Origin: an uncultured Pelagibacteraceae bacterium
Lineage (GTDB): Bacteria > Pseudomonadota > Alphaproteobacteria > Pelagibacterales > AG-422-B15
Assembly: GCA_902598405.1 (NCBI GenBank)
Contig: CACKBQ010000004.1
Span: 2,756-66,755 of the forward strand
Direction: 5' to 3'
Length of the DNA stretch: 64,000 bases
Part shown: piece by piece, positions 782 to 59,329 of the stretch
Position numbering within the stretch: the stretch's first letter is position 1
Layout of the letters: every line of letters begins with the position of its first letter
Position numbers and translations under genes: made by a program
The notes under the pieces: generated by a model
The model's database searches: none
What the model was told of the DNA's origin: nothing
The model's input: only the letters and a program-made list of their open reading frames with translations

Positions 782-1276
782 ATGAAAATATTAATTTGTG
801 GACTACCTGGATCTGGAAAAACATGGCTAGCAGAGAGACTAGTTCAAAATATTGATAATTGTGCCTGGTATAATGCTGATATAGTTAGAAGCGCATCGAA
901 CGATTGGGACTTTTCAAAAGAAGGAAGATCAAGGCAAGCAATGCGAATGAAAACGTTTGCTAATTTCGAAAAAAGTAATGGAAGATACGTAATATGTGAC
1001 TTTGTTGCTCCAACAAAGGCTGCAAGAGAGTCTTTCGGGGCTGATTATTTGATTTGGCTTGATACAATTAAAGAAGGAAGAGTTGTAGATAATAAAAAAA
1101 ATGAATTAAAGAATTCTAAGGACCTACCATTTGAAGTTGAAACGCTCGAGAATTCTCAAGCATTTAAAGATACAACTAATATGTTTGAAGAGCCTAAAAA
1201 TGCAAATAAAATTATAAATAGTTTCATGAGTGATCAGGAAATAGCTGCTCTGGCGAGAGAAATCACTAATGTTTGA
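782..1276 (+). CDS. Small adenylyl-sulfate (APS) kinase-like P-loop protein
   Basis: GLPGSGKT Walker A, NADIVR, DWDFSKEGR..Q..R and VICDFVAP resemble CysC motifs (D.D..R, FS..DR, ..FISP); 164 aa. Confidence 0.75.
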   Translation: MKILICGLPGSGKTWLAERLVQNIDNCAWYNADIVRSASNDWDFSKEGRSRQAMRMKTFANFEKSNGRYVICDFVAPTKAARESFGADYLIWLDTIKEGRVVDNKKNELKNSKDLPFEVETLENSQAFKDTTNMFEEPKNANKIINSFMSDQEIAALAREITNV

Positions 1277-1664
1277 TTGGAAAAAGCCAACATCTCAAAT
1301 GCTTGGCCGTTGGCAACCTTGGCATAAAGGACATACGGAGCTATTTAAAAAAGCTTTAAATTTGTCAGGACAAGTATGCATAATGTTTAGAGATGTTTCA
1401 GGAGTAGATGCTGGAGTTGATGGTCAATCAGATAACCCGTTTGAGTTTGAAGAAGTAAAGCGACGTATAATTAACAGTCTTGAATTAGCGGGATTTAAAA
1501 ATGAGAGAGAATTTATTGTAATAAAGGTCCCAAATATAACTGATATTTCATTTGGTAGAGGGGTTGGCTACACATTTACAGAGCATGACCTGGGAGAAGA
1601 GATTCATAAAATTTCAGCAACAAAAATTCGAAAAGAGATGAGAGATAAGGACGAATTAGCTTAA
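1269..1664 (+). CDS. Small HIGH-superfamily nucleotidyltransferase (cytidyltransferase-like)
   Basis: GRWQPWHKGH, DNPF and ISATKIR motifs; overlaps the upstream kinase gene by 8 bp. Confidence 0.75.
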   Translation: MFDWKKPTSQMLGRWQPWHKGHTELFKKALNLSGQVCIMFRDVSGVDAGVDGQSDNPFEFEEVKRRIINSLELAGFKNEREFIVIKVPNITDISFGRGVGYTFTEHDLGEEIHKISATKIRKEMRDKDELA

Positions 1665-2011
1665 AATATTGTTGCTCCAAATATTTTTATTTCACCGTCT
1701 TCTGTACCTAAAACTAATCTTCCAAGATAGTCGCCATCTGAAATAGTGCTTTTTTGTTTGAATAGCACCGTGACATGTTCGTCTCTTCTTATGCACCCTA
1801 GAAATTCATTCTCTTGTTTTAAATTTGTAATTACCTCGTTGTTTGTCCATTGTTTTGCGAGCTCAATTTCGTTCGCCCCAAAGAGCATTCTTGCAGAAAA
1901 ATCTTTAGTAAAACCAAAGTAATCTTGAGAATTTGAGCACATAATTAAGTTTTCCCAGAGAGGGGAAGCAATTTCTAAAATTTCATTATCAGATTTCTTA
2001 AGAAGATCCAT
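1661..2011 (-). CDS. Hypothetical protein directly downstream of aprA
   Basis: 116 aa ORF whose ATG abuts the aprA stop (0-bp gap); no recognised catalytic motif. Confidence 0.75.
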   Translation of the reverse strand: MDLLKKSDNEILEIASPLWENLIMCSNSQDYFGFTKDFSARMLFGANEIELAKQWTNNEVITNLKQENEFLGCIRRDEHVTVLFKQKSTISDGDYLGRLVLGTEDGEIKIFGATIF

Positions 2012-3847
2012 TTAGTCGACAAGATTATGCATTGGAGCCTTATTCATACTGAATTCACCTGTCTTTCTGTCTCTTTGTGAAACTGTCAAACAGTGCCAAT
2101 TTGCATCATCGATTTTCATGTGATCACCACGGTAATAATAACCAGGCCAACGTGTTTCTTCCCTAAATAATGTATGACTCGTTACACACTGAGAAGTGGT
2201 GACTCTATGCTTTAATTCCCAAGCTCTCATAAGCTGGTGGTAATCTTCCGCAGCTACATGCTCTAAATCTTCTTCAAGCATCTTTAGGAGATTGGTACCA
2301 ATTTTTAATAAATTATCATTTGTCATATACGAAACTCCAACACCCCCTACGTATTCATCCATAATTTTTTGTAAACGTTGGAGCCCTTGAATTGGTAGAA
2401 TATAGCTTGGTGATACTGTGCCAGCAGTAATTTCATTTCTTCCAACTTTATAATTTTCAAGAGGTTTGTAGATTACTTCTTTTAAATCTTCGTATTGTTT
2501 GTCTGTAACTTTAATTTCCTCATTTTGGATATCATTTACGTATTTTACAGCGGCTTTTGCAGCAAGACGTCCCTCAGTAAATGATCCTGAGGAAAACTTA
2601 TGCGCACTTCCACCAACTGTGTCACCTGCACCAAATAACCCATTAACACTTGTCATTCTATTGTAGCCCCAAAAATAATCGCTTGGTGAGATATCCTCTG
2701 GACCACTTACCCAGGCTCCGGAACAAGTAGCATGTGAGCCCATTACATATGGTTCGGATGTAGTGAGTTCAGGATTAGTATACTTTGGGTCAATATTCTG
2801 AGATGCCCATACTACTGCTTGACCAACTGTCATTCCTAGAAAATTTTCCCAGCCAACTGTTTCCATATGCGGATCTTGAAATGCCTCTTTGGTAACCATA
2901 TGAATAGGACCACGACCAGCTTTTACTTCCTCAATAAACGCATGGTTTCTGAGACACGTTGGAACAGGCACGTGATCAATATATTCTCCTACAAGTTTTT
3001 TTGTTTCTTCGTACCATTTTTTCTCGTAGTTCTCACCGTTACCATTTTCTGTATAAGTCTTGAGATGTAAAAAATAAGCACCCACTGGTCCATAACCATC
3101 TTTAAATCTTGTCAGAACTATTCTATTTTCCATTTGTGTCATTTTGGCTCCAGCCATAATAGGAAGAGCGTATGCTGAGCCATTACTCCATGGCGCATAC
3201 CAAGTCCTTCCCATTCCTTCACCAACAGCTCTTGGTTTGAAAATATGAGATGCGCCTCCTGCAGCCACTATAACTGCTTTGGCTTTAAAAACATGGTAAT
3301 TTCCTGTTCGCATATTGAAACCAACAGCACCACCTACTCGCTCAGATTTGCCTTCATCCATCAGAAGATGAGTAATCATTATTCTATTATAAATTTTATC
3401 AGCTGATTTTTTTGCGGCCTCAGCTACAATGGGTTTATAACTTTCACCGTGGATCATTATCTGCCATTTACCTTCCCTTTGGTACCTGCCAGTTTCTTTA
3501 TCACGCATTATTGGTAATCCCCATTCATCGAACATATGGACCGTGGAATCGACGTGTCTTGCAATATCGTATGTAAGGTCTTCTCTCACTAAACCCATTA
3601 AGTCATTTCTCGCATATCGCACATGATCTTCTGGTTGGTTTTCATCCCATTGCATTCCCATATAGCAGTTTATTGCGTATAGTCCCTGGGCTACTGCACC
3701 ACTTCGATCAATATTTGCTTTTTCAACACATACTATTTTAAGATCTCTGCCCCAATGTCTTGCTTCAAAGGTAGCGCCTGTTCCAGCCATTCCACCACCG
3801 ACAATGAGAATGTCACAATCCTCATGAATTGTTTTAATTGAAGCCAT
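2012..3847 (-). CDS. aprA: Adenylyl-sulfate reductase alpha subunit
   Basis: DILIVGGGMAG, RSGAVAQGL.AIN, WQIMIHGESYK, GRTWYAPW, HKFSSGSFTEG, REETRWPG. Confidence 0.97.
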   Translation of the reverse strand: MASIKTIHEDCDILIVGGGMAGTGATFEARHWGRDLKIVCVEKANIDRSGAVAQGLYAINCYMGMQWDENQPEDHVRYARNDLMGLVREDLTYDIARHVDSTVHMFDEWGLPIMRDKETGRYQREGKWQIMIHGESYKPIVAEAAKKSADKIYNRIMITHLLMDEGKSERVGGAVGFNMRTGNYHVFKAKAVIVAAGGASHIFKPRAVGEGMGRTWYAPWSNGSAYALPIMAGAKMTQMENRIVLTRFKDGYGPVGAYFLHLKTYTENGNGENYEKKWYEETKKLVGEYIDHVPVPTCLRNHAFIEEVKAGRGPIHMVTKEAFQDPHMETVGWENFLGMTVGQAVVWASQNIDPKYTNPELTTSEPYVMGSHATCSGAWVSGPEDISPSDYFWGYNRMTSVNGLFGAGDTVGGSAHKFSSGSFTEGRLAAKAAVKYVNDIQNEEIKVTDKQYEDLKEVIYKPLENYKVGRNEITAGTVSPSYILPIQGLQRLQKIMDEYVGGVGVSYMTNDNLLKIGTNLLKMLEEDLEHVAAEDYHQLMRAWELKHRVTTSQCVTSHTLFREETRWPGYYYRGDHMKIDDANWHCLTVSQRDRKTGEFSMNKAPMHNLVD

Positions 3848-3851
3848 CTAT

Positions 3852-4316
3852 TTAGTTAATTCCTTTTTGATTATCTTTCTTTAGACTTGGAAGACCTGTG
3901 TCAATATTAAGTCCATTAGGTTCTGAGTAAAGTAATTGTGAATCTATCTCTTCATTTGTTGGAGGAGTTTCATCAGCAAGATTTGGAATATGTTTACCCC
4001 AAGGTTTAGTTGTAATTGGCGATACAAAATTTTTCTCGTGACCATTTCGGAATTTTATTCTCCAAGATATGGTTCCTTTTTCCTCTTCACGTAGTACTCT
4101 TACTTTATGATGCATTGGCGCAAAATCAGCATATCCTCTTGCATCAATAGCATTCTGTGGACATGCTTTGACACATGAATAGCACTCCCAGCACATGTTA
4201 GGCTCTATATTCACGGCACGTCTAGTTTCTTTATCAATATGCATAATGTCTGATGGACATATGTCTACGCAATGACCACAACCATCGCATCTTGTCATGT
4301 ATACAAATGTTGACAT
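3852..4316 (-). CDS. aprB: Adenylyl-sulfate reductase beta subunit
   Basis: CDGCGHCVDICP and CWECYSCVKACP ferredoxin motifs, RGYADFAP; directly upstream of aprA. Confidence 0.97.
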   Translation of the reverse strand: MSTFVYMTRCDGCGHCVDICPSDIMHIDKETRRAVNIEPNMCWECYSCVKACPQNAIDARGYADFAPMHHKVRVLREEEKGTISWRIKFRNGHEKNFVSPITTKPWGKHIPNLADETPPTNEEIDSQLLYSEPNGLNIDTGLPSLKKDNQKGIN

Positions 4317-4355: not shown

Positions 4356-5144
4356 TTAATAATGCCTAGGCGATTCTCGTTTAATTCCAAGCCCAAATTG
4401 CTTTGGTGCATCAGCTGGGGCAGGCAAGTCATCTCTATACCCATCAGCCTCAGATAAATTCTTTTGAATGGCTGCACCAGGTTTGTAAAACATGTGAGCA
4501 AATTTTGACCAATAAACACCACCAAACAATACAATATTAGATAAGCCAAAGAGCACTAAAAACAAGGTATCTAGTATTGGAACTCCTGACGACTGAGTAA
4601 ATGACCAAGCTAGTCCAAATGTTGCTGCAGCTAAAAGCGATAATACAAAAAGATCTGCTCTTATGATTCTATTCCACGGATTTGCCTCAGCTGAGACATC
4701 GACCCTTAAGAAAAACCAAAACCAATAACCTCCTAGACATGTCATTATAGCGCCAACATGCCATAACAATGATATTTGATGGGGAGCGGCTGTATTTGCA
4801 TATCCAAATATTAAGATAACAGAAGCAACCCAAAATAATATCGAACCGTACATGCCTAAAAGATGAGCAGCTCTTCTTTGTCCTCTGCCTAATTCTGAAG
4901 TTGTTAAAATATCACTAGCAATTGTCTTGCTTATAATTTTTGCCTTTTGAGAACCACTCAAATCATTTGTTGCAGATGCTTTTGCTCTTTTAAAATTAAT
5001 GAAAAAATATTTTGCATTTTTCTTATGCGCCATATCCACTAAAGTACCTATTGCAACCATTAGTATCATTACAACTACAAAGCCTTGTAATGCAATGGCG
5101 GGCACAAAGGCCATAAGTTCTTCGAAAGGATTTATATAAATCAT
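4356..5144 (-). CDS. aprM: Adenylyl-sulfate reductase membrane anchor
   Basis: Multi-TM protein with HKKNAKYF, AHLLGMYG, GGYWFWFF and WSKFAHMFYKP, upstream of aprB. ATG at 5144 preferred to TTG at 5153. Confidence 0.9.
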   Translation of the reverse strand: MIYINPFEELMAFVPAIALQGFVVVMILMVAIGTLVDMAHKKNAKYFFINFKRAKASATNDLSGSQKAKIISKTIASDILTTSELGRGQRRAAHLLGMYGSILFWVASVILIFGYANTAAPHQISLLWHVGAIMTCLGGYWFWFFLRVDVSAEANPWNRIIRADLFVLSLLAAATFGLAWSFTQSSGVPILDTLFLVLFGLSNIVLFGGVYWSKFAHMFYKPGAAIQKNLSEADGYRDDLPAPADAPKQFGLGIKRESPRHY

Positions 5145-5197
5145 AAGTATCAATACACTATAACAGAATCTATAAATAATAACTATTATTTATACTT

Positions 5198-6133
5198 TCA
5201 AGGCAGGGGATTAGTTTCAAAATTATTATACAAATGTTTCAAATTCGAAACTTTTTGGATATCTTCTCTTAGATTTTTCGTCCCAGAGTCAATTGCTTCT
5301 GAACTGAATTCGATAATACAGCTGCTAAAGCTCTTACGATTTTTTAATCGAGAATAGTAGTCTCTTAAATTGCTTAATTTTTTTGTGAATAGACCAATCA
5401 GATTAACCTCATCAAGTCTGTGTAATAATGTCATCCAGGTTATATCTGCAATACTAAATTTATCCCCATCAATCCATATCTTGTTCTCTAAATGAACATC
5501 TAATGATGTCAAATGTGATTTAAGATTCTCAAATGCCTTTATAGCAACTCTTTGATGTGGAGAATTTTTATTAAAGACTGAGTAGCCTAATAGTCGATAT
5601 AAAGTAAAATTAAGCGCTCTAAACTTTGAAGGATGCTTTATAAAATAATTAAAAAATTTTAAGAAACTAATTTTTCTAAGCATAGAAACAAACAATGGTT
5701 GAGTAAGTAGGGACACACAATTACCTGCGTAGTCATTTATCCCATTAACCGGGTCATCTCCAACTAACGAACCTTTTTTATTCCAATAATCAACTGTTTC
5801 ACTCTCCCCAAGTTTATTTGGAAAAGTTTCCATTAAATATCTTATTTGTTCGTGAGACTCATAAATAGGCTGATTGTTATGTAATAGAACTGGTACTGTT
5901 GCTTTTGGATTAATTTTAAGAAAATCTTTTGATAAATTTTCACAATCTTTTGTTTCAATAATATGTATATGAACTGGCAGGTAATCAATTTTATATTCCT
6001 CAAGACATATTCTTACTTTACGAGAGCAAAGTGAGAAGTTGTTATGATAAAGCACCCATTCAGAATTTGAGTCTGATACTGAATATTTTTGTTTACCGAT
6101 AAGATCTTTGTTTTTAGGATTCTTTTTCTTCAT
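5198..6133 (-). CDS. Glutathione S-transferase family protein (long form)
   Basis: LYH...SLCSRKVR, INPKATVPVL, YES..Q..YL, GDKFSIADI. Confidence 0.85.
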   Translation of the reverse strand: MKKKNPKNKDLIGKQKYSVSDSNSEWVLYHNNFSLCSRKVRICLEEYKIDYLPVHIHIIETKDCENLSKDFLKINPKATVPVLLHNNQPIYESHEQIRYLMETFPNKLGESETVDYWNKKGSLVGDDPVNGINDYAGNCVSLLTQPLFVSMLRKISFLKFFNYFIKHPSKFRALNFTLYRLLGYSVFNKNSPHQRVAIKAFENLKSHLTSLDVHLENKIWIDGDKFSIADITWMTLLHRLDEVNLIGLFTKKLSNLRDYYSRLKNRKSFSSCIIEFSSEAIDSGTKNLREDIQKVSNLKHLYNNFETNPLP

Positions 6134-6485
6134 CCCATACTTTGTTTAGCAATTGACTGGCTGAAACTGCTGTAGGAAAACCACTATAGTGAGCCACATG
6201 CAATATCATTTCTTCAATTTTTTCTTTCGTAATTCCTAAATTTTTAGCCCCTCTTAAATGAGATTTTAATTCATTCTCTCTATTAAGTGCTACCAAAACA
6301 GTGAGCGTAATCATGCTTCTTTCTTGAAGCGATAACTGCTCAGTTCGTGACCAGATTGTTCCATACAACATATCAATTATTTGCTTTAGCAAATCTTTAG
6401 AGACAGGAGTTTCATCGTTTTTAAGTAAATCCATCTTCTTCAGGATTTCTAATCCTTTTTTTCGATCTTGATCGTCTAATGGCAT
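6114..6485 (-). CDS. Carboxymuconolactone decarboxylase (CMD) family protein
   Basis: YGTIWSR..LSLQERSMIT, ELKSHLRGA..LG, HYSGFP. Confidence 0.88.
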   Translation of the reverse strand: MPLDDQDRKKGLEILKKMDLLKNDETPVSKDLLKQIIDMLYGTIWSRTEQLSLQERSMITLTVLVALNRENELKSHLRGAKNLGITKEKIEEMILHVAHYSGFPTAVSASQLLNKVWDEEKES

Positions 6486-6515
6486 TTTTATATTTTACTC
6501 CTTAATATCAGTGTT

Positions 6516-8126
6516 TCAATTAAATTCAATTTTCTCTCTAATATTCAATAATACATCATTAATAATAGTTTCAAGACTATCGCTTTTATCAAAGTTAAAT
6601 AAATCGAAAACATATTTATCAGGTCTTAAGATAACTCCAGAACAATCAAACTTTTCACAGTAAATTTGTAAATCTTTATGAGTTTCTTCACACGCAATGT
6701 AACCCTCATAGTTTGAACGGTCGTAATTGGGAGTTATATTTATGATCTTAAAATTATGTTTTTTTAATAGTTCAAGATTATCCTCTGAGATATTTTTATT
6801 GCCTTCAAAATTATTTAAAATAATACCAAAATTCTTTTCTAGCACATTATCGGTGCCAAAAATCCTACCATCATGAAGACGAACATTTATCTCATTGAAG
6901 TAATATCTCTCTATAGAAACATTCTTAATTTTTGGCATTTTATGAACACCGGGTCCTAGACGGTTTCCGTTTAAAACAGGAAAAATATTTTCTTTACCTC
7001 TTAAATAGCTTTGTGTTCTTAACAATGCATTTCTAATAAATGCTTTAAATTTACTTTTAGCATTTATGACTCCTCCCATTTTAATTGCCCCTCGAGTAAT
7101 TCGGGCGACGTGCGGCCTTCTTTCTGATTGATAGGTATCTAATATTTGGGGTGAGTAAAGTCCCTTTAGTACTCCATTAATTTTCCACAATATATTTTCA
7201 GCATCCCTACATCCAGAATTCATTCCTTGACCCATAAAAGGAGGCATTTGATGCGCCGCGTCACCGAGTAGAAAAATGTTTTCATTTTGCCATTTAACAG
7301 CATCAGCTGCATGAAATGAGTATACTGCAGTTCTGCTAAATTCAACTTCATTATCTCCGATCCATTGGTCTATGTATTGTCTAAAAACTTCTTCTTTTTG
7401 AATTTCATCAACAGAATCACCTGGCATAAAGGCTATTTCAAATCTAAAGCAATTATCAACTCCTTGAATAATTGTTGTTGGTCGTGACGGATTACAATAT
7501 TGAATCGCATCAATATCTGTGAAACAGTCAAATTTACTTTTAGTATACCCGTCCACTACCATCCAGGTCTCATCAGCGTCTAAACTTTTAAGTTCAACAT
7601 TGCTGAGTTTTCTAATTGTACTATTTGCTCCATCGCATGCCAAAAGATACTTACTGTTCGTTTTAAACTCTTCGCCAGTTTCAATATTTTTGTAAGAACA
7701 ATTCACAACGCCATCTGATTGATCAACACTTAAAATTTCATTACCTGTTTTAATAGTATTAGTCTGATATTTTTTTGCATTTTCTCTATGCGCTTGATCA
7801 AACTGTGGTTGGTGAATGAATAGTATTGAATGTTGATAATTATATGTATCAAAACCATCCATCGTAATTTTTAAAATTGATCTTTTCTTAGCATCTTTGT
7901 TATCAACACCTCTAATTTTTCTTGTTTTTACTTCAGTTAGAAAGTTACAATGAGCCATTGCTCGTTGGCATTCAGCATCCCATGTAATTGCTCTGGGCAA
8001 GGGGTAGGTTTCTTTTTCCTTATCTAAAATTAACGCTTTAATACCGTAATACCCTAGCAAGTTTGCGCAAGTTTCACCCACTGGTCCATAACCAGCTACA
8101 ATGACATCATATTCAGTATCACTCAC
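6516..8126 (-). CDS. FAD-dependent aromatic-ring monooxygenase (MhpA-like)
   Basis: AGYGPVG, LPRA, LLACDGANSTIR, LLGDAAHQMPPFMGQGMNSG.RDA, RPDKYV; GTG start. Confidence 0.88.
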   Translation of the reverse strand: MSDTEYDVIVAGYGPVGETCANLLGYYGIKALILDKEKETYPLPRAITWDAECQRAMAHCNFLTEVKTRKIRGVDNKDAKKRSILKITMDGFDTYNYQHSILFIHQPQFDQAHRENAKKYQTNTIKTGNEILSVDQSDGVVNCSYKNIETGEEFKTNSKYLLACDGANSTIRKLSNVELKSLDADETWMVVDGYTKSKFDCFTDIDAIQYCNPSRPTTIIQGVDNCFRFEIAFMPGDSVDEIQKEEVFRQYIDQWIGDNEVEFSRTAVYSFHAADAVKWQNENIFLLGDAAHQMPPFMGQGMNSGCRDAENILWKINGVLKGLYSPQILDTYQSERRPHVARITRGAIKMGGVINAKSKFKAFIRNALLRTQSYLRGKENIFPVLNGNRLGPGVHKMPKIKNVSIERYYFNEINVRLHDGRIFGTDNVLEKNFGIILNNFEGNKNISEDNLELLKKHNFKIINITPNYDRSNYEGYIACEETHKDLQIYCEKFDCSGVILRPDKYVFDLFNFDKSDSLETIINDVLLNIREKIEFN

Positions 8127-8131
8127 GCTAC

Positions 8132-9025
8132 TTAGTATGCAGGCGTATCTTCTGGCTCTTCAATAACTTTATTATTAATGAATCCCAGTTTTTCAATTTC
8201 AATTTTTATTTCGTCACCTGCTTTAAGCCAATTTCTTGTCATCACTGCAGAACCAGCCGGTGTACCGGTTGGTATCAAGTCTCCAGGTTCTAGCGTAAAA
8301 GCAGTTGATAAGTACTCAACCAATGTAAAACAGTCAAAAATTAAATCACTTGTCGAAGCTGATTGCCTTAATTCTCCATTTACATATGTTTCAAGCTTTA
8401 GGTCATGTGGATTGCCAACTTCATCACTGGTTACAATATATGGACCAAATGGACAATGGGTGTCCCATGATTTTCCCATAGTCATTGTCATAGGAGGGCC
8501 ACGCATCTGCCAATCTCTGATTGTAACGTCGTTAACGACTGTATAGCCGTAAATAACTCCAGCTGCTTTGTCATAAGGTACATGACGACATTTTTTTCCA
8601 ATAATGAAACCAAGTTCACCTTCATAATCTAAAAATTCTGAAGCACGAGGCCGATGAATATCATCGTATGGACCGTTAACAGAGCTATTTTGCTTATTAA
8701 ATATATTTGGATATTTTTCTTGAGCTTTACCTATTGTTTTTGCAGCTGTTTGCGCAACTTCATCTTGATGTTCTTTATAGTTCAATCCAACCGCCAGAAT
8801 TTTACTTGGTTTTGTAATAGGAGCTTTTAAATGTACTTTGCTTAACTCAATTTTAATTTCACTATTATCAATAAGTTTTTTTGCAGTATCTAGACCCTGA
8901 TCTCCAAGAGCGATAAAATCTATCATGTTGTTGGGTAATGAACTATTTGAGAAATCCACTACGTGGTCTCCACTTATTGCGCCTATGGATGTAATGCCAT
9001 TAAATGTAAAAGTAACTAATTTCAT
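8132..9025 (-). CDS. Fumarylacetoacetate hydrolase family protein
   Basis: VGLNY, DYEGEL, NDVTIRDWQ, GKSWDT, LEPGDLIPTGTPAG. Confidence 0.92.
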   Translation of the reverse strand: MKLVTFTFNGITSIGAISGDHVVDFSNSSLPNNMIDFIALGDQGLDTAKKLIDNSEIKIELSKVHLKAPITKPSKILAVGLNYKEHQDEVAQTAAKTIGKAQEKYPNIFNKQNSSVNGPYDDIHRPRASEFLDYEGELGFIIGKKCRHVPYDKAAGVIYGYTVVNDVTIRDWQMRGPPMTMTMGKSWDTHCPFGPYIVTSDEVGNPHDLKLETYVNGELRQSASTSDLIFDCFTLVEYLSTAFTLEPGDLIPTGTPAGSAVMTRNWLKAGDEIKIEIEKLGFINNKVIEEPEDTPAY

Positions 9026-58849: not shown

Positions 58850-59329
58850 ATGAGTAGAACTGGCATATATCCTGGAAGCTTTGATCCCATTCATAAAGGG
58901 CACATTGATATTATCAATAGGGCTACAAAACTTGTTGATAAATTATATATCGCAGTTGCTGACAGCCAGCATAAATCACCTTTATTTGATTTAGATGAAA
59001 GAAAAGAAATGATAGAAAATGAGTTTTCATCAAATGATAAAATTGAAGTAATTGCATTTGATAATTTATTGATTGATTTAGCTAATTCACTAGATGCAAA
59101 GATACTCATAAGAGGTCTTCGTGTTGTTTCTGATTTTGAATATGAGTTTCAGATGTTGGGCATGAATAGACAATTAGATAATAATATTGAAACAGTATTC
59201 TTAATGGCAGACGCTCAACGGCAATCAATTTCCTCTAATTTTGTAAAAGAAATTGCACGTTTGGGAGGAAATATTGGTAATTTTACAAATAAGTTTGTTG
59301 AGCAAAAATTAAAAGATAAATTCAAATAA
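58850..59329 (+). CDS. coaD: Phosphopantetheine adenylyltransferase
   Basis: YPGSFDPIH.GH, RGLR..SDFEYE, ISS..VKE. Confidence 0.96.
   Translation: MSRTGIYPGSFDPIHKGHIDIINRATKLVDKLYIAVADSQHKSPLFDLDERKEMIENEFSSNDKIEVIAFDNLLIDLANSLDAKILIRGLRVVSDFEYEFQMLGMNRQLDNNIETVFLMADAQRQSISSNFVKEIARLGGNIGNFTNKFVEQKLKDKFK

Follow-up and report, generated by a model that had tools for sequence, protein, structure and literature searches.

A short kinase and a small nucleotidyltransferase beside aprMBA in SAR11 bacteria: a candidate miniature PAPS-synthase-like module

The window analysed here is a stretch of 64,000 nucleotides from an uncultured Pelagibacteraceae bacterium (contig CACKBQ010000004.1 of assembly GCA_902598405.1, positions 2,756 to 66,755), and close to its start two short overlapping genes lie on the forward strand, encoding a small kinase and a small nucleotidyltransferase (NTase) of the HIGH-motif superfamily. 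The pair converges on an orf116-aprA-aprB-aprM unit of the opposite strand, which includes the genes for adenosine 5'-phosphosulfate (APS) reductase. We propose that the two proteins probably constitute a miniature module resembling the synthases of 3'-phosphoadenosine 5'-phosphosulfate (PAPS), in which an ATP-sulfurylase analogue derived from nicotinamide mononucleotide (NMN) adenylyltransferases works with a minimal APS kinase, and which would in this organism convert APS into sulfate and ATP, or into PAPS.

The first-pass annotation of this DNA had described a 164-residue CysC-like kinase and a 131-residue HIGH-family enzyme that overlap by 8 bp and end against the apr genes, and the open reading frames (ORFs) and the sequence agree with it (Table 1). 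The start codon of the NTase gene lies within the last codons and the stop codon of the kinase gene, an arrangement that suggests translational coupling, and the NTase stop shares four bases with the stop of orf116, a gene that the annotation did not mention. Intact, stop-free homologues of both ORFs are present in 42 of 61 related genomes, with within-genus identities of 78-98% for the NTase and 74-94% for the kinase, and the two are therefore genuine genes and not chance frames. Contigs from marine metatranscriptomes (four runs, two studies) overlap parts of both genes, for example 741-1041 with five differences and 1125-1275 with none, and such RNA-library contigs are no proof of transcription or of a joint transcript. 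A scan of positions 500-2300 for promoters and terminators returned 8 sites, with 5.5 +/- 2.0 expected and hence no excess over chance, and no terminator. The host assembly belongs to the SAR11 order, comprises 1.05 Mb in 38 contigs and is 81% complete; within it neither the ATP sulfurylase family Sat (PF01747) nor CysD has a match, so that the claim of a missing canonical sat extends from the window to the rest of this assembly, and likewise to 60 of the 61 relatives.

Table 1. Genes and other features of the window; the thresholds given for TIGR02061 and TIGR02060 are NCBIfam equivalog cut-offs
Feature	Position	Strand	Basis
Short kinase ORF, 164 aa, ATG start	782..1276	+	ORF list
HIGH-motif nucleotidyltransferase (NTase) ORF, 131 aa, ATG start	1269..1664	+	ORF list
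Kinase/NTase overlap, 8 bases, ATGTTTGA	1269..1276	+	sequence
orf116, 116 aa, end of the apr transcription unit	1661..2011	-	ORF list, no Pfam match
aprA, APS reductase alpha subunit	2012..3847	-	TIGR02061, 989.7 bits, cut-off 641.75
aprB, APS reductase beta subunit	3852..4316	-	TIGR02060, 191.1 bits, cut-off 135.65
aprM-like membrane anchor, 265 aa	4356..5153	-	weak QmoC/TcuB-like matches only
GST-family gene, edge of the swappable cassette	5198..6133	-	GST_N and GST_C domains
GST-CMD-FAD-monooxygenase-FAH flank of the cassette	5198..9025	-	
Canonical CoaD, phosphopantetheine adenylyltransferase	58850..59329	+	TIGR01510, 194.2 bits

The 164-residue protein appears from its alignments to be a lid-less relative of the APS kinases, in line with its earlier description as CysC-like. 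It matches PF01583 (APS_kinase) with 31.5 bits at a cut-off of 21.1 over residues 3-84 (profile positions 5-91 of 152), and scores under the NCBIfam cut-offs for full-length enzymes (TIGR00455, 25.6 vs 138.7 bits; NF004041, 32.1 vs 127). When a profile of nine short kinases is searched against the PDB, APS kinases come first, the best being 2yvu with an E value of 8.1e-12, followed by PAPSS1, Arabidopsis APK, 2gks, 1d6j, 8a8h and CysNC. The NadR kinase family is matched with E 0.0055 (AAA_28), as opposed to 2e-7 for APS_kinase. In an alignment with the canonical CysC of a SAR116 locus (L094), the P-loop residues G7, L8, G10, G12 and K13 are invariant, as are D33, R36, F44, S45, R49, R55, F74 and P77, so that the P-loop and the DGDxxR, GFS..R..R and FISP segments are all represented, and a terminal F..FE.P segment is also common to both; the roles of the conserved residues would be those described in the APS-kinase literature. 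The Ser of the canonical FISP segment is replaced by Ala or Cys in the short kinases, and at the position of the lid the window's kinase carries, relative to the other short forms, a genus-specific 27-residue insert that is unrelated to the lid. A second apsK-like ORF of about 165-185 residues accompanies the short kinase in 6 of 18 genomes of the sister genus (63.9-114.4 bits, under the cut-off of 138.7; for example G058:C1:1456200-1456685).

The NTase remains under all Pfam cut-offs, with 18.6 vs 21 bits for PF01467 and 12.1 vs 24.3 for PF01747, the latter match (E 0.12) covering residues 16-31 only. Against the NCBIfam models of NMN adenylyltransferases (NMNATs) it reaches 27.3 vs 127 bits (NF002243), 27.2 vs 449 (NF003787) and 20.5 vs 181.2 (TIGR01527). 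The motifs quoted by the first-pass annotation are found at residues 13-22 (GRWQPWHKGH), 95-101 (FGRGVGY) and 115-121 (ISATKIR) and, together with the fold described below, place the protein in the HIGH superfamily. Ten residues are invariant in an alignment of the family: G13, R14, Q16, H22, L25, P57, G96, R97, S116 and R121. Among these the G96-R97 loop is specific to the family, with the consensus YGRDVGY and the form FGRGVGY in the window, which the first-pass annotation had set beside the GRDHAGVG motif of Sat, and R14, R41 and R121 are family arginines alongside it.

A profile of ten NTase sequences retrieves from the PDB the Methanocaldococcus jannaschii NMNAT 1f9a (E 2.9e-9), NadM 2qjt (2.7e-8) and the NMNATs of Methanothermobacter thermautotrophicus, the NMNAT matches spanning E 2.9e-9 to 1e-5, with phosphopantetheine adenylyltransferase (PPAT) and NadR as weaker matches; the alignments with NMNATs are good only over the first 60-80 residues. 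GRWQPWHKGH and ISATKIR align to the corresponding motifs of 1f9a and 2qjt, and in HMMER the profile positions 11-69 and 92-120 align to residues 4-63 and 110-137 of 1f9a. Compared to 1f9a, the NTase has about 19 residues fewer from the VPNI strand (strand 4) to the GY motif and about 30 fewer at the C-terminus (131 vs 168 residues), where the extension is missing, and the acceptor pocket looks reduced in these alignments. An AlphaFold (AF2) model computed on 42 sequences has a pLDDT of 89.5 and a pTM of 0.82, and was used in place of a single-sequence model (pLDDT 39), which was discarded. Foldseek finds nothing in the PDB for this model at E <= 0.001, and VIA-align ranks NadM 2qjt first (Z 11.0), followed by PPAT 4nah (Z 10.6) and 1f9a (Z 9.9).

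The earlier remark that GRWQPWHKGH resembles NadM-type enzymes is thus borne out in both sequence and fold, and the comparison of a model with NadM and with Sat favours NadM (Z 11.0 for 2qjt, 8.6 for 1v47). The suggestion of a stripped-down ATP sulfurylase does not hold as far as descent is concerned: the NTase is by descent a cut-down NMNAT-like enzyme and not a cut-down Sat. In the Thermus thermophilus Sat 1v47_B, 118 residues can be aligned with a root-mean-square deviation of 3.5 and 16% identity, NTase residues 1-129 corresponding to Sat residues 149-332, and this match is not specific because the fold is common to the whole HIGH nucleotidyltransferase superfamily. Sat has an N-terminal beta-barrel domain ahead of its catalytic domain, for which the NTase has no room, since the core fills all of its 131 residues. 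A NadD-like gene is present in all 61 genomes, including the host, regardless of the pair, and CoaD lies in the window, so that neither NAD nor CoA synthesis depends on the NTase. CoaD also serves as an internal control, as it demonstrates that the genome has ordinary small HIGH-family enzymes. A prediction of the kinase-NTase complex, made without controls, gave a score of 0.00 and a mark of 0.32, and is uninformative on binding.

The NTase family is very large in marine data: it comprises at least 7,996 proteins at E <= 0.001 among 8,000 candidates scored, with 1,019 cluster representatives at 50% identity, and its members are labelled 'hypothetical', 'FAD synthase' or 'NMN adenylyltransferase' in the source databases. 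In species genomes 552 of 599 candidate stretches were confirmed, and the locus counts given here refer to the best 80 loci (10-sequence alignment), which come from SAR11, Alphaproteobacteria of the HIMB59/MarineAlpha5 type, SAR86, SAR116, a Legionellales metagenome-assembled genome and Marinoscillum. The kinase gene lies directly upstream of the NTase gene in 75 of the 80 loci; among the other five, one breaks off where its contig ends and another has a canonical CysC in its vicinity. In Marinoscillum (L085, L099) the NTase occurs alone, with no kinase in the locus, near a metallo-beta-lactamase-rhodanese fusion, a thioredoxin-like gene and an HD-domain gene; the fusion resembles persulfide dioxygenases, which produce sulfite.

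The two proteins also occur as one chain. All 12 scanned representatives of 235-291 residues consist of an N-terminal PF01583-like domain and a C-terminal NTase, 11 of the 12 kinase domains being over the Pfam cut-off. In a further architecture (P0217, 311 residues, seven cluster members) the NTase precedes a complete CysC of the canonical type (211.9 bits, profile positions 2-151 of 152), and the source databases name this protein 'adenylyl-sulfate kinase'. P0268 carries DUF4118 ahead of a kinase-NTase fusion, and P0158 joins DUF2061, a predicted membrane protein, to the NTase; these domain architectures suggest membrane-tethered forms. Fused copies are present in 12 phage records as well (Xylella, Xanthomonas, Stenotrophomonas and Clavibacter phages; 36-42% identity), where they are annotated 'kinase' or 'adenylylsulfate kinase'. 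In the Xylella phage Sano (copy region L100 4593..5330) the fusion is preceded, at a distance of seven genes, by one annotated cysteine dioxygenase, and in the Stenotrophomonas phage DLP_6 a gene annotated 'Ser/Thr phosphatase' (L101 2626..3423, + strand) is found two genes upstream.

The evidence that weighs most is the exchange of the pair for cysD-cysNC, which is observed in two separate lineages and at two loci. The NTase is found in 54 of 112 genomes and CysD in 39, and no genome has both; these genomes are related, and the counts are not independent trials. Among 51 relatives of the genome that carries locus L044, the NTase is present in 12 and CysD in 33, never together, and 6 lack both; among 61 SAR11-order genomes the NTase occurs in 42, CysD in 6 and both in none. 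The strict complementarity of the NTase is with CysD and not with Sat, and Sat is too rare in these lineages for the anti-correlation with sat that the first-pass annotation had put forward to be judged. Locus L044 reads Na/Ca-exchanger-cysQ-kinase-NTase, and the loci around CysD in its relatives read cysQ-cysD-cysNC in 8 of 8 cases, two of them with the same Na/Ca-exchanger gene upstream; the cysQ identity is 60-68%. The second exchange concerns the window itself: four congeners (L109-L112) carry cysD-cysNC beside the GST-CMD-FAD-monooxygenase-FAH genes that flank the window's kinase-NTase-orf116-aprABM cassette, and HlyD, the other flank of this cassette, lies on the far side of cysD-cysNC in two of the four. 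In one congener 39 residues of the kinase survive as a remnant. CMD, the FAD monooxygenase and FAH are 77-97% identical to those of the cysD-cysNC congeners, with GST only 49-51% identical, and judging by this gene order the stretch between the GST and HlyD flanks seems to behave as a swappable sulfur island. The CysD of the congeners has an N-terminal extension of about 190 residues.

The pair is also linked to aprMBA. The clustering with aprBA that had been claimed for the window recurs in three independent gene orders, which together account for the 22 of 80 loci that include aprA. In 15 loci the pair converges on the apr genes as in the window, in six it diverges from aprM (four of these with cysQ alongside), and in one, from SAR116, a single strand reads NTase-aprM-aprB-aprA-metallophosphoesterase-ORF-canonical CysC. 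Of the 61 SAR11-order genomes 44 have a true aprA, and 42 of these have the NTase as well; the other 17 have neither gene. In the two aprA-positive genomes that have no NTase, aprA is broken at contig ends. The aprM-like gene adjoins aprB across related loci; its name in the window (4356..5153) is one that we assume from its position and from the literature on SAR11 aprMBA.

orf116 adjoins aprA in 20 of the 22 aprA loci, in SAR11 and in HIMB59-type bacteria, at 59-97% identity, and is unmatched only at L037, which ends at aprA, and at SAR116 L094. Its Atlas entries are all unnamed clusters, and it may be an unrecognised accessory protein of Apr. The idea that it follows apr in all three lineages was rejected, as the 116-residue ORF of SAR116, which is placed after the metallophosphoesterase gene, shows no detectable relationship to it (BLASTP E 0.2). 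That metallophosphoesterase gene (L094 11613..12386, + strand) lies between aprA and the canonical cysC, and a metallophosphoesterase or phosphatase may be a further partner of the module. In 3 of 6 sister-genus loci a gene for the alpha subunit of a Rieske/ring-hydroxylating oxygenase overlaps the kinase start (L014 7436..8644, - strand), and a 60-62% identical oxygenase gene lies beside cysQ in the apr-cysQ-kinase-NTase clusters of HIMB59-type bacteria (L033-L036, L053); one possibility is that the oxygenase beside the kinase or cysQ releases sulfite.

Other neighbours belong to sulfur metabolism as well. CysQ (TIGR01331, 294.8 bits) is encoded directly upstream of the kinase in 12 alphaproteobacterial loci, eight of which also contain Xsc (TIGR03457, 939.7 bits). 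In L044, the sole cysQ locus that was scanned with Pfam, genes for Pta, a class-III aminotransferase and alanine dehydrogenase lie alongside, which together with Xsc form a pathway from taurine to sulfite. A sulfotransferase (PF13469) is encoded directly upstream of the kinase in nine SAR86/gammaproteobacterial loci, and in five SAR86 genomes with the pair, whose completeness is unreported, aprA, Sat and CysD each have no match. The host genome of the window contains a PF13469 domain in a 577-residue frame. Of the sister family, 24 genomes are nearly complete; PF13469 is present in 17 of them, all of which have the pair (16) or CysDNC (1), and in none of the five that have neither. No genes for NAD, CoA or flavin metabolism were seen in the neighbourhoods scanned.

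The fusions, the neighbours and the replacement of cysD-cysNC point to APS/PAPS chemistry, and it is from this context that we infer both catalytic activities, the direction of flux and the coupling to AprBA. The NTase would catalyse the reversible reaction of ATP and sulfate to APS and pyrophosphate, and the kinase would phosphorylate APS with ATP to give PAPS and ADP. In the window, AprMBA would form APS from sulfite and AMP, the NTase would pyrophosphorolyse it to ATP and sulfate and so complete an indirect oxidation of sulfite without Sat, and the kinase would divert part of the APS to PAPS for the sulfotransferase of the host. At loci that have only cysQ or a sulfotransferase beside the pair, the flux would run from sulfate to PAPS, with CysQ clearing the adenosine 3',5'-bisphosphate (PAP) that is left.

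A close known parallel is offered by the bifunctional PAPS synthases and Sat-CysC fusions, such as human PAPSS1 (1x6v) and the Aquifex aeolicus SAT/APS kinase 2gks, in which a HIGH-superfamily adenylyltransferase and a P-loop APS kinase are likewise combined. The kinase profile and the NTase model match the two structures (Z 6.5 for 2gks and 6.1 for 1x6v with the model), and the two reaction steps would be the same. The pair differs from them in the size of the NTase (131 residues, as compared to about 350-400 in a Sat chain) and its NMNAT-like descent, in a kinase that has no lid, and in the order of the fusions, where the kinase comes first. With CysD/CysN-CysC the pair shares the slot after cysQ and the congener locus, and their distributions are mutually exclusive; however, CysD/CysN combines a PP-loop ATPase with a GTPase, and the NTase has the unrelated HIGH nucleotidyltransferase fold, there is no GTPase in the pair to drive the unfavourable step, and it takes about one third of the coding length (295 residues vs about 900-1100).

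In Allochromatium vinosum sat is described as co-transcribed with aprMBA (PMC3779200). The adenylyltransferase gene of the pair adjoins aprMBA in the same way, most closely in the SAR116 order NTase-aprM-aprB-aprA, although a 131-residue NTase takes the place of Sat, a short or canonical APS kinase accompanies it, and the hosts live heterotrophically and derive their sulfite from organosulfonates. NadM and the archaeal NMNATs (1f9a, 2qjt, M. thermautotrophicus 1ej2) share the GRxQPxHxGH and ISxTxIR motifs with the NTase, at fold Z values of 9.3-11.0 and 22-26% identity; unlike NadM, the NTase has an invariant G96-R97 loop of its own, a shorter stretch before the GY motif, no C-terminal part and no NAD context. 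In NadR, too, a HIGH nucleotidyltransferase and a P-loop kinase occur together, with weak matches to the pair (1lw7, E 0.016; 8x7f and 6gye, Z 8.3-8.4), but its domain order is reversed relative to the pair's fusions, and the pair has a kinase of the APS-kinase lineage, no helix-turn-helix domain and no NAD context. No published description of this NTase as a sulfurylase was found in the literature outside subscription-only papers, supplements left out. Whether it represents a third, independently evolved type of ATP sulfurylase that arose from NMNATs, and forms the smallest known PAPS synthase with the lid-less kinase, is evenly poised on these comparisons.

Several observations weigh against the proposed module. 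To our knowledge, no member of the NTase family has a known enzyme activity. The NTase is nearest to NMN adenylyltransferases both by sequence (1f9a) and by fold (2qjt), no Sat is found among the sequence matches of its profile in the PDB up to E = 10, and Sat ranks only sixth by fold (T. thermophilus 1v47_B, Z 8.6; other Sats, Z 5.7-6.5). In the kinase, Asn replaces the first Asp of the DGD motif of canonical enzymes, and the short kinases miss about 24 lid residues between the DT strand and the F..YE.P motif. Two assemblies, G017 and the SAR116 genome G066, contain a canonical Sat as well as the NTase; in G017 the Sat piece has a GC content of 26.9%, as compared to 41.0% for the piece with apr and the pair, and may be foreign to the organism. 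The phage copies lie among genes for replication and nucleotide metabolism. Within the window's genus, PF13469 is present in 7 of 8 genomes with neither the pair nor CysD, two of these seven being 90-92% complete. In 15 SAR86 loci the gene before the kinase is a conserved one of 361-367 residues that is not a recognisable sulfotransferase: it was considered as such and rejected, as Pfam gives nothing for it at E 0.1 and BLASTP detects no resemblance to the sulfotransferase of L090. The automatic Atlas name of this gene (for example L060 6495..7595) is 'methyltransferase family', and a GcvT-family gene lies divergently upstream in 13 of the 15 loci. Finally, aprA was found in none of the ten pair-bearing SAR86 and cysQ-type alphaproteobacterial genomes examined, which indicates that the apr link is not obligatory, and in all 18 sister-genus genomes the pair lies apart from apr, at a distance of at least 47 kb or on another contig. 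The expected co-occurrence with apr stands within the SAR11 order (42 of 44 aprA genomes), and does not extend to the SAR86 and cysQ-type bacteria.

These last observations also fit an alternative, namely that the module makes PAPS from sulfate for sulfation only and that its adjacency to apr reflects a swappable 'sulfur island'. It would explain the ten genomes with the pair and no aprA, the sister-genus pairs that are not beside apr, the association with sulfotransferases (9 loci) and cysQ (12 loci), the PF13469 sulfotransferase of the host genome and the exchange of the whole cassette for cysD-cysNC at one locus in the congeners. We nevertheless regard it as unlikely, given that the adjacency to apr is kept in three gene orders and three lineages, that the NTase tracks aprA in the SAR11 order (42 of 44 genomes with it, 0 of 17 without), and that the SAR116 NTase, upstream of aprMBA, stands where sat stands in the Allochromatium sat-aprMBA operon, as reported in PMC3779200.

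A less probable alternative retains an APS kinase, or a related 3'-kinase, and lets the NTase transfer AMP to an acceptor of the same pathway other than sulfate, such as another oxyanion, or take part in a step of PAP/AMP recycling. The NTase indeed has no detectable Sat signature, its Arg-bearing G96-R97 loop and four invariant arginines would suit any small anion, and Sat is found together with it in two assemblies. The exchange speaks for sulfate instead, as the pair replaces an ATP sulfurylase and an APS kinase (cysD-cysNC) in the same slot and never occurs with CysD, and the SAR86 genomes with a sulfotransferase beside the pair show no other source of APS.

That the pair serves NAD salvage, as a split and reordered NadR-like system of a ribosylnicotinamide-type kinase and an NMN adenylyltransferase, is improbable. 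The closest relatives of the NTase are NadM and the archaeal NMNATs, with NadR among the weaker matches, some databases name its members 'NMN adenylyltransferase', and phages, which often carry NAD salvage genes, hold fused kinase-NTase copies. However, the NCBIfam NMNAT scores are far under their cut-offs (27 bits vs 127-449), a segment that is longer in NMNATs is reduced by about 19 residues, the kinase resembles APS kinases rather than the NadR kinases, all 61 genomes have NadD with or without the pair, no NAD gene is found in any neighbourhood scanned, and all informative contexts are related to sulfur. Another cofactor pathway of adenylylation followed by 3'-phosphorylation, either an analogue of PPAT and dephospho-CoA kinase, which by established biochemistry follow the same two-step logic, or FAD synthesis, is scarcely credible: PPAT 4nah is the second-best fold match (Z 10.6) and some sources name members 'FAD synthase', but the window itself encodes a canonical CoaD (TIGR01510, 194.2 bits), the neighbourhoods contain no CoA or flavin genes, and the fusion to canonical CysC and the cysD-cysNC exchange would be left unexplained.

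The PAPS-synthase-like module that we favour would bear on an open point in the sulfur metabolism of SAR11. Most SAR11 bacteria have AprBA and no ATP sulfurylase, so that the fate of their APS is unknown, according to PMC10356861 and PMC5069961; in the former, most SAR11 are described as having no ATP sulfurylase and sulfate excretion from taurine as not demonstrated in culture, and in the latter, sat and cysDNCHIJ are listed as absent, yet 'cysC' and aprA share their strain distribution. If the proposal is correct, a sulfurylase-kinase pair of about 300 residues would fill this gap: in SAR11 it would supply the missing Sat step, and the sulfite from taurine and other sulfonates would be oxidised via AprBA with a gain of ATP at the substrate level. 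Both SAR11 and SAR86 rank with the most abundant marine bacteria, and they have been described as lacking sulfate activation. These textbook 'non-assimilators' of sulfate, along with their relatives, would then activate sulfate after all, which would explain how the sulfotransferases of their genomes are supplied, and inventories of sulfur-cycle genes, which now count sat and cysDN, would change. The NTase would moreover exemplify a further evolutionary route, from an NMNAT to a sulfurylase, for a central reaction, and the pair would offer biocatalysis a very compact system for generating PAPS.

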